Positions 464 through 50,827 are shown, counted from the first letter of the stretch. The stretch is 64,000 nucleotides of DNA from Heterodontus francisci (GCF_036365525.1 NC_090409.1:31444437-31508436); one strand, 5' to 3'. The notes: generated by a model not told the origin, from the letters alone. Made by a program: numbers and translations.

Positions 464-581
464 ATCCACCGGAAGTGACGATTACAGGATATGACGGAAA
501 CTGGCACCTCAACAGACGCAAGGTGAACCTCAGGTGCATTGTTGAGGCCAATCCTCCAGCAACAAGCTATCGCTGGACAAT
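464..581 (+). CDS. Nectin/PVR-like Ig receptor: exon for the first half of the membrane-proximal Ig domain (gene begins upstream of the window)
   Basis: ttttcctggttag|AT ... ACA AT|gtatgt. Translates (Y)PPEVTITGYDGNWHLNRRKVNLRCIVEANPPATSYRWTM, matching the nectin domain-3 pattern YxPEVxIxGYDxNWY...LxCxAxANPP...YxW. Confidence 0.9.
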
Positions 582-1044
582 GTATGTAGGCTTACAATAT
601 ATGTGATATGACACTGTGTGTAATTGTAAGGTTATATCAGGCATCTAGAGCAGAATGAAAATCCAGTACCTATTGCAAACAGTTAACCCCTCTCATATCC
701 CAGAGAAATATTTAAAGTCCTCGAACATTCTGCATGAGAAAGTAACAACATTTTTGAAGTTATCTATCCATCAGTTGATCTGTTTCTTTATCTCTCTCTA
801 CCTCTAAATCTCTCATTATTTTTCTGCCCCTCTCTTTCTATCGATATCTCTGTCCCCGCCTAATCTCTCGCTTGCTCCCTCAACCTCTCTCTCCAAACAG
901 CTATACATCCCGCACAGGAAAGATTTAGGTATTGAGATTTCAATCAGCCCGCATTACTCAAAACTAATCGTTGTTGAAAGATAGCTGCAGTCCCTCTCCA
1001 GCTAAAGGCAGGTTATTAACTGAGGGCCGTGTCTATTCATCTAG

Positions 1045-1214
1045 GACCACAGGACCAGTACCTGAAAATGCCCGAGTGGAAGGAAATCATCTATTTATAC
1101 GACAAGTCGATTACTCTGTTAATGGGACGTGGGTCTGTGAAGCAACAAACGCCGTTGGAAAAGGGAAGGGTGAAATTGCAGTTGTAGTGAGGGAAATGGA
1201 CGCACTCAGCGCAG
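1045..1214 (+). CDS. Nectin/PVR-like receptor: second half of the Ig domain
   Basis: ctattcatctag|G ... GCA G|gtacac. TTGPVPENARVEGNHLFIRQVDYSVNGTWVCEATNAVGKGKGEIAVVVREMDALSA contains the F-strand GTWxCEATNxxG motif. Phase is compatible with the previous exon. Confidence 0.9.
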
Positions 1215-1375
1215 GTACACTTCCACTATGTTATTGTGGTTTAACGGCGATGTTGCTACTACATGGAGACAAGAAGAGGTTTATAATGTTGCATGGACAT
1301 GCTAACGTGCACAAGGATTGATTACTTGCATATGCAATAACATTGAGAATACTTTCTTTGTTCAAATGTTTATAG

Positions 1376-1489
1376 GCGAGTCCTTTGGATCCACCGTGGT
1401 GTACATTGTCATCGGAACAGTCATTGGGGTCTTGTTCATTGCTGTCTTACTATCCGTTGTGATAGTCAAAAAAAGACGGACAATCGATG
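1376..1489 (+). CDS. Nectin/PVR-like receptor: transmembrane exon
   Basis: tttatag|GC ... GAT G|gtaagc. GESFGSTVVYIVIGTVIGVLFIAVLLSVVIVKKRRTID is a hydrophobic helix followed by a basic stop-transfer sequence. Confidence 0.9.
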
Positions 1490-1534
1490 GTAAGCAATAT
1501 AAAATGTTTATGGGTCCATGTACAATTTCACTTT

Positions 1535-46640: not shown

Positions 46641-46988
46641 ATATTTATTTATTTAGAGATACAGCACTGAAGCAGGCCCTTCGGCTCACCGAGTCTGTGC
46701 CGACCATCAACCACCCATTTATACTAATCCTACACTAATCCCATATTCCTACCATATCCTCACCTGTCCCGATATTCCCCCTACCACCTACCTATACTGG
46801 GGCAATTTGCAATGGCCAATTTACATATCAACCTGCAAGTCTTTGGTGGTGGGAGGAAACCGGAGCACCCGGCGAAAACCCACGCAGACACAGGGAGAAC
46901 TTGCAAACTCCGCACAGGCAGTACCCAGAATTGAACCCGGGTCGCTGGAGCTGTGAGGCTGCGGTGCTAACCACTGTGCCACTGTGCC
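46641..46988 (-). mobile_element. HE1-type V-SINE nested in the Harbinger relic
   Basis: Reverse complement of 21002-21344. Confidence 0.92.
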
Positions 46989-49534
46989 TCCCACTGTTGC
47001 CTCAGCTCGCTTTGCAACTCCAGCATATCCTGTGCTGTGGAACCCAAAGGCTTTTCATCAGCCTGGGGCTCAGAATGCACCTGAGTATCCACAGTCCTGT
47101 GACAGCCAGAGGCCTCACCTGTCTCAGTCAGTTGTTCGGATGCATGTGTGGTGCTCTCACCAGTTTGTGACCCTGATTCTAAAGTCGAGCATAAACCTAC
47201 AAAGGTGAACGTATCTGCACTGGTGGAAGGTGCAGGAGAGTCATGTGACACTGCAGCTTCTGACTGCTCCTCCACATACGTTGACTGCTGTCCGCCTTTG
47301 AATGGTGTTTCCTGTGAAAGCCGACCTGTATGAGAGAACACAAAGATGTGTGGGTTAGGCTGTGCAGAATCTCATCATGATATTTATGCACGGTGGATCT
47401 CCAGGAGTGTACGTTTTGGATGTCGACTGAAGACAATTCGCACTCTGTTGCATGGAGACTCAAGTCTCACCATCCGCTATTGAGTGACTGCCCTGGATCC
47501 CCGCTAACTCCAGTGCTTCATTGTCAGTTGCTGAGAGAGTCCAGGAGTCACTCGAACAGCAGTTTCAGCAGTGAACAGCAAATGACTCAAAGCAAGCAGG
47601 GTTTGCAGGTCTTTAAAAATGGCACCGGCAACTGCTCTGGAGTCAACTGACACTGCATGCAGCGCCTCGACTCTCATCCCCATCGCGGAACTGGACGGGA
47701 CCCGCACCCCAATTATTGGAATTGGCTGCCCACAGCATGACTGACTTGGGCCCGCCGCACATGTGAGGAGCGGCAAGGGCGCCCAATTCCGGGGTCCGTC
47801 GCCGGAGACTGAATAGAGAACACTGAACACAACACTCAATGTGCATTGAAATATTCATTAAACGTAATTTGAGGAGCCCAATATTTAAATGCTCTTTCAA
47901 CAGGATTGAAAACGCGATAGAACATGGAATAAAGTGCGAGAGCCATTCATGAAATTCCCACTTCACGGGTTTGAAAAACTGACCAAAGCTTCCATCTATT
48001 AGGAGTTGTCCTGTACCTGCCAACAACAGCTATTTCACAATGAAGACCAAACCTGTTCCCGCTTGTGTCACATCACATCAGGCGACTGAGGAGGTGAAGT
48101 ATTCGGTGCCAATCGATTTCTTGAACTTTGCTTACTTATTCAGCAACCGTCCTTGAAACAGCTGGTTGCACATCGTACATATGCGCTCCGTGTGCTCAAC
48201 TGTTACTGAATATGCATGGTATATGGTGAGTTGCTAAAAATGCTTAATACAGAAACATCTCTCCCTCTCAAAAACACCCACACACACAGACATATACAAT
48301 CGTACAACTATTTATGACTTACTTATAATGTTTTGGAATCTGCAACAAGAAGACACTGACTGCCCTTGCTTGCAGACACCTCCTCCTCACTTATCACACT
48401 TTTGGAGTTAACACGAGATGAATGTTGGGGATGTGCAACTGCAGTTAGTTTCGTTGCTGCAGTCTGTTGGTGTGCAGTTTCATCACTTACGCTGAATAAC
48501 GGTGCGATTGAAGTGTTTTTGTCAGTCAGCCATTTGACACTGCGGCAAAAAAAAAAAACCCATTCCAAATGCCTTAACTATTTACATTCAAATTCCGGCT
48601 CTGTAAACCTGCTGAAATTGATCAATATTATGCTTCATCTGTTTCAGTGCCTTTCATTCTCATTTAGGTCTGAGATCTGGGGCATGTTGAGGCTATTGTA
48701 AATCGAAATACCGCTGGAAAATATACGGATGTTATTCACTGAATAACAGAAATGCAGAGGATAGATATGTGTGTTCTCAGCTTTTGTAACCAACCAAATC
48801 TTTGTGACGATGATTTCTGGAACTCTTCCCATATGCATTGTGAAACCGATTGTTTCTTGATATGATGCTATGATATCACGAATTATCAGGAATAATTAAG
48901 ACAGACTCAGAAACACTGTACACACACACACATCAAATGCACAGTTGTTTTCTTAAACATAATATATTAGAATCTGTGACAGGAGAGATCTGTCCACGCT
49001 TGCAGGCGCCTCTGACTAAATTTTCACACACGTTAAGCATTTTCGCACTCATACAAGATGAATGTTGGAAATACATAACTAGGGTTAGTATTGTTGCTTC
49101 ATTCTACAAACCCGTGGTTGCACGGCTTTCTTTAATTCAATGCCAATAAACAATAGGGACAGTTTGTCAGCAAACAGCGTCACATGATGGGAAACATCCT
49201 TCCTTTTAAAGTGATTTAGATATTATCGCTCCGTTCCCAGTTGTATAAATGTGTTCAAATTAATCAAAATTTTAGCCTATTTGCAGCAGTCTCTTCTCAT
49301 TTAGACCTCTCCTCGAGAACGTTTGAAATGAATTTCAGAGAGTGCAATTGGTTTTCAGCGATGGAAAAAAAGCGATGGAGAATCGATATCGGTTTCTAAA
49401 TCCCACCCCTGTGTTTTTTTTTCAAAATGTTATGTTTTGCCTTCTCAAAAACCTTAATAGAGCATGATTCAACGTTGGCTCTTATTGGTGGCAGTGATTT
49501 AACTTTATTCAGTGCAAATAAAGCTCGATACATG

Positions 49535-50400
49535 AAAGTAAAAGCAAAATACTGCGGATGCTGGAAATCTGAAACAAAAACAAGAAATGCTGGAATCACT
49601 CAGCAGGTCTGGCAGCATCTGTGGAAAGAGAAGCAGAGTTAACGTTTCGGGTCAGTGACCCTTCTTCGGAACTGACAAATATTAGAAAAGTCACAGATTA
49701 TAAGCAAGTGAGGTGGGGGTGGGGCAAGAGATAACAAAGGAGAAGGTGCAGATTGGACCAGGCCACATAGCTGACCAAAAGGTCATGGAGCAAAGGCAAA
49801 CAATACGTTAATGGTATGTTGAAAGACAAAGCATTAGTACAGATTAGGTGTGAATACACTGAATATTGAACAGCAGCAAGTGCAAACCTGAAAAAAAAAC
49901 CTGAAAAAAAACAGTGGGTAAGCAAACTGAACAAACTAAGATGAAATGAAATAAATGCAAAAAAAGATTGTAAAAAATGTAAAAAAGAATGTAAAAAAAA
50001 GGAAGAAAAAATAACTAAAAATGAAAGTAAAATGGGGGGCTGTCATGCTCTGAAATGATTGAACTCAATGTTCAGTCCGGCAGGCTGTAGTGTGCCCAAT
50101 CTGTAAATGAGATGCTATTCCTCGAGCTTGCGTTGATGTTCACTGGAACACTGCAGCAATCCCAGGACAGAGATGTGAGCATGAGAGCAGGGGGGGAGTG
50201 TTGAAATGGCAAGCAACCGGAAGCTCAGGGTCCTGCTTGCGGACTGAGCGGAGATGTTCCGCAAAGCGGTCACCCAGTCTGCGCTTGGTCTCCCCAATGT
50301 AGAGGAGACCACACTGTGAGCAGCGAATACAGTATACTACATTGAAAGAAGTACAAGTAAATCTCTGCTTCACCTGAAAGGAGTGTTTGGGGCCTGGGAT
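49535..50400 (-). mobile_element. Penelope-like element 3' fragment (GIY-YIG plus UTR)
   Basis: IPGPKHSFQVKQRFTCTSFNVVYCIRCSQCGLLYIGETKRRLGDRFAEHL. Near-identical to 11553-12360. Confidence 0.93.
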
Positions 50401-50682
50401 ACATGTGTCGATACATGAAAGTATTTGAGCAGTAGTTTGCGAGTTACAATTGAGGGTTGCAATACCCTGGTTATGCTTTGGGTGAAAGTCGTGGTGACAA
50501 GTGCCTGCACCATCTAGTCCGAAGCCCTGGCTCACTCTCTGAGAGTCTTCTGCACTGATTGTCTGCACATACCTACTTTTATACGCACTAATAGAAGTCA
50601 AAATCACTAAATATCACTGGACCATTGAATTACATTGAAATACTCATTGAATCACCGTGACCACCTTATTGTCCAATAATAG

Positions 50683-50827
50683 GGAAATCATGCACACAAA
50701 GCCTTGGTTTTGCTCGGGTTTCGGTATAATGAGTCCGATAACACTTGCTTTTCTGCTATTGGAGCTGTTAGCAGTGAAGCTGACTGTATACACTGGTGCA
50801 CTTATACTGGCCGTGATGACATGGTGA
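50683..50827 (+). other. Orphan transmembrane-coding stretch with charged residues (possible decayed exon)
   Basis: KPWFCSGFGIMSPITLAFLLLELLAVKLTVYTGALILAVMTW*, preceded by a possible acceptor ccttattgtccaataatag|. Confidence 0.3.

Follow-up and report, generated by a model that had tools for sequence, protein, structure and literature searches.

A putative nectin/PVR-based paired-receptor cluster with a mostly tyrosine-less member and an arginine-less Siglec-like gene in the shark Heterodontus francisci

Background

The closest described systems are the CEACAM pairs, including Xenopus ceacam, in which opposite tails are carried on homogenised ectodomains and converting pairs lie in inverted orientation (PMC5112662). 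Here we analyse a 64,000-nucleotide stretch of the Heterodontus francisci genome (G000:C39:31,444,437-31,508,436; the window), in which a nectin/PVR-like gene (gene B, + strand) converges on a Siglec-fold gene (- strand, 39366-29211), an arrangement that an earlier note on the same DNA had already described correctly. A tandem paralog of gene B, named gene A, is located 10–16 kb upstream of the window and carries an inhibitory motif of the immunoreceptor tyrosine-based kind (ITIM) and a switch motif (ITSM), IVYASL and TVYADV, and relatives with an activation motif (ITAM) share its ectodomain. On comparison of these genes, we give a probability of about two in three to the reading that the window is the end of an elasmobranch nectin/PVR-based paired-receptor cluster, with a phospho-silent gene B and an ITIM-bearing Siglec-like gene without the sialic-acid arginine.

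ITIM-SHP and ITAM-Syk signalling are well established. Like CEACAM1/CEACAM3 and Xenopus ceacam, the shark genes use an immunoglobulin (Ig) adhesion scaffold, bear ITIM/ITSM and ITAM in their own tails and may likewise sit on a 19q13-type chromosome; near-identical ectodomains within species and opposite gene orientation are also shared with these systems. Unlike CEACAM, the shark ectodomain is of nectin/PVR type (best PDB matches nectin-1, nectin-2 and PVR, with CEA far weaker), its V-C1-C2 region seems to be wholly homogenised, and a conserved third member with labile tyrosines exists. The layout of V, CD80-like C2 and C2 domains is that of nectins and PVR/CD155, and VQVTW, A-x6-G and xFP, which are motifs of lock-and-key type, are present in the shark genes. 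Nectins end in a C-terminal afadin/PDZ motif, E/A-x-Y-V. The true nectin matches have this afadin-binding ..YV end, whereas the shark genes do not, and it is absent from 14/14 B tails. No ITAM-bearing nectin is known in mammals.

The mammalian TIGIT/CD96/PVRIG-CD226 receptors are diverged, unlinked genes with nectins as ligands. The shark cluster resembles this axis in having inhibitory and activating receptors around nectin-type V domains, and in a gene with V domain, transmembrane (TM) segment and ITIM, but differs in that the three-domain nectin-like proteins themselves bear the opposite tails. SIGLEC12 is an arginine-less Siglec. With CD33-related Siglecs and MAG the shark Siglec-like gene shares the V-set fold, the cysteine pattern, an ITIM tail and paralog expansion, while the arginine is missing in 22 of the 23 readable shark V exons found with this query.

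Structure and expression of gene B

Exon models were built independently and match RefSeq X4 and X1; in the exon models and the RefSeq models, the exons of both genes have AG/GT ends throughout and compatible phases. RNA evidence is taken from contigs of four runs (presumed to be RNA; one sample, one study), and the GT-AG joints in these contigs indicate spliced molecules. Two exons of gene B fall outside the window, V at 4.2 kb and C1 at 1.4 kb upstream; the remaining exons are as follows.

464-581 (+): C2 domain, first half (exon model; RNA joint 581>1045 in 4/4 runs)
1045-1214 (+): C2 domain, second half, and stalk (exon model; RNA contigs)
1376-1489 (+): transmembrane exon, helix without charged residue (exon model; RNA contigs)
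2891-2925 (+): small cytoplasmic exon, alternative acceptor 2888 (joints at both acceptors; RefSeq X1-X4)
4799-4942 (+): terminal exon, alternative acceptor 4796, Tyr-free, with TVFATL (TTC) and TINADV (AAC) (RNA joint; gene A tail alignment; 14 orthologs)

GT-AG joints are found in 4/4 runs for the first three introns of gene B and in 3/4 runs for the last intron, which leads into the tail exon. Both contigs listed across this tail exon agree with the genome at every position, which indicates that TVFATL and TINADV are transcribed and do not come from an assembly error. Two other candidates for nectin tail exons, a micro-exon of 6 nt near 17425 and an exon on the + strand near 22892, are superfluous given 4799-4942. 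The ectodomain matches Pfam V-set, C2-set_2 and Ig_3, as well as nectin-1 (E 7e-78). The tail exon has a single match in the genome and gene B is the sole full copy found; the two B-like copies examined, at 17.93 and 18.98 Mb, have V and C1 exons only. A third B-like copy was seen at 19.90 Mb.

The gene B tail contains zero tyrosines. In the DNA alignment, TTC of TVFATL and AAC of TINADV pair with TAT and TAC of IVYASL and TVYADV in gene A. Together with a TCC codon of the Siglec-like gene described below, these are the three non-Tyr codons pointed out by the earlier note, and all of them turn out to be true Tyr substitutions, with a Tyr codon in the paralog at each.

Recurrent absence of tyrosines in gene B orthologs

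A V-domain search returned 8 proteins, and cluster members together with a profile search extended the B ortholog set to 14 species, with one record per species and with extra isoforms and unnamed duplicates excluded. These 14 elasmobranch orthologs form one clade (100/99) in a tree of 37 ectodomains, whose resolved branches fit the expected relationships. No holocephalan ortholog was found among the named matches, in a search not sufficient to show absence. B is separated from the single nectin-1 row sampled by a 99/98 branch, and B with A/ITAM forms its own clade (96/98); orthology to NECTIN1, which the RefSeq name implies, appears to fail on this tree. For six species sampled for both genes, V-domain identity to the Heterodontus copy is 64–80% for B and 45–60% for A.

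The motif 1 site has Tyr in 2/14 orthologs (the others have F, H or L), and the motif 2 site in 3/14 (the others have N, H or V). Both tyrosines are absent in 10/14, and both are present in Heptranchias alone. The earlier note had made its idea depend on tyrosines in orthologs and paralogs at these positions: the paralogs retain them and the orthologs mostly do not, which indicates that the loss is old and recurrent, not a recent erosion. If loss is assumed to be irreversible, 5 losses at motif 1 and 3–4 at motif 2 are counted on a species tree, and Tyr may also have been regained in some B lineages.

ITIM and ITAM genes as a paired family

The gene A query retrieved 27 proteins, including a third tail type with ITAM. 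Three tail types are carried on a common V-C1-C2 ectodomain: A (ITIM + ITSM), the ITAM type and B. ITIM and ITSM with both tyrosines are found in 9/9 A orthologs, and YxxL-x7-YxxL/I in 7/7 rows of the ITAM type (6 species from four shark orders), with an upstream Y-x-N in 6 of the rows. In the same tree A and ITAM form a clade (100/100), in which the ITIM and ITAM members of a species or genus are each other's sisters in 5/5 cases with both sampled (Pristiophorus, Stegostoma, Cetorhinus, Mustelus and Scyliorhinus; support 100/99-100). The ectodomain identity between ITIM and ITAM models, which are separate RefSeq records, is 92.5–97.8% within the same species (4 species; 87.6% in a partial fifth), while it is 51.6–62.2% across species (6 pairs).

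In Heterodontus, an ITAM remnant on the opposite strand, inverted relative to A, is located 46–47.5 kb upstream of the window and 30 kb upstream of the gene A V exon; its TM exon contains a stop, and one of its tyrosines is replaced. In a second ITAM tail copy at 17.686 Mb both Tyr are present, and a search of the 64 kb upstream revealed no ectodomain. Members with opposite tails, ectodomains closer within than between species, and clustered, inverted genes are thus all found, and clustering was also read from the records of Cetorhinus, Mustelus and Stegostoma. At the protein level, the A and ITAM ectodomains are evolving in concert, judging from these identities and the tree. The earlier note's proposal of an elasmobranch paired-receptor complex is supported by genes outside the window, namely the ITIM gene A, its ITAM relatives and their homogenised ectodomains.

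A-type genes are multi-copy on C39. A gene with a single nectin-type V domain, TM and ITIM (TIGIT/PVRIG-like layout) lies within the cluster and has a Heptranchias counterpart. Its parts are located at C39:31.273-31.276 Mb (L084/L085) and, closer to the window, about 52 kb upstream; as 116 kb separate the V/TM exons from the tail exon, they may belong to two copies. Shortened A-type models without C domains (V-TM-ITIM or TM-less) also exist in Heterodontus (P0048, P0053, P0055, P0056; L058, L061), and TM-less isoforms in other sharks (P0016, P0037, P0046) are possible soluble decoys. At C39:17.7-19.9 Mb and on contigs C1191 and C1465, a module is repeated that combines A-type genes with truncated B-type genes and with Siglec-like genes that lack the Arg, and many of the genes are broken; C1191 and C1465 score identically, which suggests very recent duplicates or alternative haplotypes.

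Constraint on the gene B tail and alternative explanations

In the two Tyr columns, 6 and 4 Fitch changes are counted in the 14 B orthologs versus 0 and 0 in the 9 A orthologs. Around the motif 1 Tyr of B, there are 0 changes at A+1 and T+2 and 1 each at V-1, L+3 and N+4, while spacer sites have up to 7. Within the 12 species without this Tyr, the motif 1 flanks show 7 changes at 5 sites, fewer than the 2.94 per site that the tail averages (P=0.0096, by resampling that treats sites as uncorrelated). In motif 2 of B, T-2 is invariant and position +3 is chiefly V/I/L/M.

Several observations weigh against a paired cluster with a phospho-silent but maintained gene B. The motif 1 flanks are not more conserved than ectodomain sites (P=0.37), conservation of the motif 2 flanks is non-significant (P=0.20), and the P values share the assumption of uncorrelated sites. 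The ortholog tails are mostly automated gene models, and two lamniform tails appear to be mis-spliced past motif 2. One of the four runs has no contig over the gene B tail exon, and all RNA is from a single sample and study. Moreover, the Heterodontus genome yielded two ITAM tail remnants but no intact gene of this type, so the pair may be broken in this species.

In an unlikely alternative, gene B would be a nectin of the usual adhesion kind, and its inherited ITIM/ITSM tail would be decaying under relaxed selection, with the flanks persisting through slow shark evolution or through splice-signal constraint close to the start of the exon. The non-significant motif 2 flanks would fit such decay, as would the degraded motif 2 of Narcine, the varied and apparently unconstrained residues at the Tyr sites (Y, F, H, L and Y, N, H, V) and the location of motif 1 only 4–12 codons from the acceptor. 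However, decay does not readily account for invariant A+1 and T+2 and nearly unchanged L+3 and N+4 beside a Tyr column with six changes, nor for the batoids, in which Tyr-1 is absent from 6/6 species and ATLN is retained in 5/6.

The likeness of A and ITAM ectodomains could also come from independent recent duplications, or from one locus annotated twice, instead of maintained pairs. Many segmental copies of the A-B-Siglec module exist in Heterodontus and several are broken, which agrees with duplication; yet the ITAM tail occurs in 6 species of four shark orders while the ectodomains follow the species, and the separately modelled pairs are 92–98%, not 100%, identical, with old tails on young-looking ectodomains. 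We consider this explanation quite improbable.

The Siglec-like gene

The Siglec-like gene and a decayed relative occupy the following positions in the window.

39330-39366 (-): signal-peptide exon (matches P0025 start)
38351-38722 (-): V exon, Siglec fold, sialic-acid Arg absent (exon model; Pfam)
37627-37938 (-): second Ig domain exon (exon model; MAG alignment; Pfam)
36876-37129 (-): broken C2 exon with small indels, net frameshift and stops, skipped in RefSeq X1 and X2 (sequence comparison)
35356-35643 (-): membrane-proximal C domain exon (exon model; MAG alignment)
34610-34703 (-): transmembrane exon, with SVYQNL (34560) in the next intron (exon model)
32744-32831 (-): first cytoplasmic exon, LLISSSV (TCC; TAC in paralogs) (exon model; paralog alignment)
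29211-29327 (-): terminal exon with intact ILYATI (ITIM) and CTYAGL (ITIM-like) (model; RefSeq X1, P0025; homologous paralog exon)
27649-27735 (-): last exon used instead in RefSeq isoform X2, hydrophobic and without Tyr (RefSeq protein P0009 placed on the window)
42367-42675 (-): dead Siglec-like V fragment with frameshift and deletion, in two frames (E 5e-13)

The last of these is the dead paralog that the earlier note had recognised. The whole protein matches Ig_CD22 (E 1e-10, above cut-off), and its V-set cysteine pattern, followed by C domains, has MAG as the best PDB match (E 3e-24). The counterpart of the broken C2 exon is open in the paralog at C39:18.691 Mb. The gene has the fold and the cytoplasmic ITIM of Siglecs but not the F-strand arginine: MAG YYFRG aligns with YQFIL, which places Ile at the MAG Arg position, in line with the eroded or relocated ligand-binding residues of the note. 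The V exon gave 36 matches (20 on C39); of the 30 loci examined, 23 have a readable F strand, with Arg in 1. This sole Arg-bearing V exon (L028, C39:40.5 Mb) has sialoadhesin as its best PDB match. Arg is also absent from the Mustelus relative. By these alignments, Arg absence is a family-wide trait and not a single-gene lesion. As a separate observation, Siglec-like paralogs (P0010, P0026-P0028; L091) differ at the start of the TM helix, where several copies read CRIGG but one reads CIIGG, a polymorphic arginine.

In the tail, TCC of LLISSSV pairs with TAC of VVYSTV in the paralog at C39:18.686 Mb. The paralog at 18.68 Mb shows the reverse, with a proximal TAC, TCC at the ILYATI site and an additional distal YAAI. 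Across the aligned copies, Tyr motifs turn over between paralogs and at least one is retained per gene compared. The terminal exon (29327-29211) is in phase 0 with a ttacag acceptor and ends RefSeq X1 with ILYATI and CTYAGL, which contradicts the claims that intact ITIMs are reached only by alternative splicing and that this Siglec is Tyr-silenced: the ITIM exon is retained. On the basis of RefSeq, splice signals and paralogs, X1 (Tyr motifs) and X2 (Tyr-free) form a possible tail switch, the sole one annotated, with a polarity opposite to that of the note.

Proposed rescue motifs and charged stretch

Two further open frames were inspected.

7255-7503 (+): orphan open frame with hydrophobic stretch and LTYCSL (7426) (only unspliced contigs listed; no evidence as gene B exon)
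50651-50827 (+): hydrophobic open frame with Glu/Lys, probable "charged TM" of the earlier note (no homolog or family)

LTYCSL and SVYQNL do stand in open frames, as the note said, but such motifs are not above chance. ITIM-shaped 6-mers number 235 in the six frames of the window; in 1-55000 there are 190, fewer than the 264 that 20 local shuffles give on average. LTYCSL was rejected as an alternative TM/tail exon on acceptor, joints, paralog, annotation and family: no phase-1 acceptor precedes the hydrophobic stretch, no joint into the 7.3–7.5 kb frame is among the 15 of 78 joints listed, the paralog has LTDCSL in a broken frame, and the frame is not annotated in proteins and has no Pfam match above cut-off and no Atlas match at 0.9. 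A phase-0 CAG at 7390-7392 would make an in-frame join of the small exon to LTYCSL feasible, and unspliced contigs span 6727-7800. No AATAAA was found in the 2 kb past the gene B stop, and the 7034-7800 region may be an extended 3' untranslated region of gene B. A copy at C39:17.919-17.920 Mb, 6 kb downstream of that locus's B-like C1 exon, shares about 70% identity with the same region. Read-through of the intron to SVYQNL was also rejected, with the motif absent from the paralog's intron.

We equate the charged stretch with 50651-50827 because this frame ends at the end coordinate given for the earlier finding. TM-like windows number 68 in 1-55000, this one included; it has no Pfam match, no tblastn match and no Ig exon found alongside. 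It was rejected as a charged TM exon (no homolog or family, no adjoining Ig exon). The idea that a decayed Ig exon lies antisense to it was rejected as well (profile score <0, no tblastn or Pfam match); it is probably a chance frame. Unlike receptors coupled to DAP12 or FcR-gamma, no charged TM exon joined to an Ig ectodomain was found at 50651-50827. An orphan charged-TM activating partner is not borne out, and the activating members use an ITAM in their own tail. The full model of silenced tails relieved by splicing to LTYCSL or by SVYQNL read-through, with a charged-TM partner near 50.8 kb, has the open frames, the phase-0 CAG and the unspliced contigs in its favour, but the constitutive ITIM exon of the Siglec-like gene, chance-level motif counts, the lacking acceptor, the lack of a joint among those listed, the absence of both motifs from paralogs and a charged stretch without homolog make it highly improbable.

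Chromosomal context

A pvrl2l/nectin-2 tail exon is located at 36.65 Mb of C39 (81% identity), about 5 Mb from the cluster; apolipoprotein genes are found at 37.1 Mb (best PDB match APOA4, not APOE) and an FXYD cluster at 41.2–41.3 Mb. The best CLPTM1-family matches are on contigs C40 and C2, not on C39. The synteny with human 19q13 that the note proposed to test has partial support from pvrl2l, apolipoprotein, FXYD and the Arg-bearing Siglec V exon on C39, but none from CLPTM1; judged from such matches, C39 is compatible with a 19q13-like chromosome, though only at the level of gene families.

Elsewhere in the window, frame-split fragments at 15132-15900 (-) resemble orphan G protein-coupled receptors (GPCRs) of a downstream array, with no Pfam match for the 2 pieces tested. 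This tandem array of at least 5 rhodopsin-like GPCR open frames (C39:31.517-31.579 Mb, L043-L050) starts about 9 kb past the window. Long pyrimidine-rich simple-repeat tracts occupy 56200-61800, and most other long open frames are fragments of long and short interspersed elements (LINEs and SINEs).

Proposed mechanism and significance

By analogy with CEACAM1/CEACAM3, gene A would recruit SHP-1/2 and inhibit the cell; were a microbe to exploit A, the ITAM twin would respond with activation through Src/Syk kinases. Gene B could be a conserved adhesion partner, a ligand or a non-signalling competitor whose phospho-output has been switched off repeatedly, and its retained V-x-A-T-L-N segment would likely have a role in docking or trafficking that needs no phosphorylation. 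The Siglec-like gene would encode an inhibitory receptor whose ligand is not sialic acid.

A more specific and rather doubtful proposal is that a CEACAM-like on/off system was built independently on nectin/PVR, with B as a Tyr-less, phosphorylation-independent docking site whose Tyr is turned off, and possibly on, by lineage. Hwang in 2002 reportedly gave a Tyr-free SAP consensus. Adaptors of the SAP/EAT-2 type with a Src homology 2 (SH2) domain, acting at T-x-x-x-x-V/I, are a speculative example of a docking partner of B, and are kept as speculative because the motif 2 flanks are non-significant despite the invariant T-2. SAP binds unphosphorylated T/S-I-Y-x-x-V/I, independently of phosphotyrosine through a motif that contains Tyr (PMC3134462, PMC3507883).

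In the literature searched, which did not cover subscription journals, no description was found of a nectin-derived shark family or of an arginine-less shark Siglec family, and passages of PMC4079198, PMC13262535 and PMC13358205 do not describe the nectin-derived family. The cluster is apparently undescribed so far, and the naming of all three gene types as "nectin-1-like" in databases masks the system.

Innate inhibitory and activating receptors of cartilaginous fishes are poorly catalogued, and this cluster supplies named genes. A nectin-derived ITIM/ITAM pair in concerted evolution predicts a shark pathogen that targets this surface, and would show that the arms-race design of CEACAM arose twice, the second time on another Ig scaffold in the same chromosomal region. 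Gene B, in turn, would be a natural experiment on an ITIM backbone without tyrosine, for which at least three to five lineages provide replicates.

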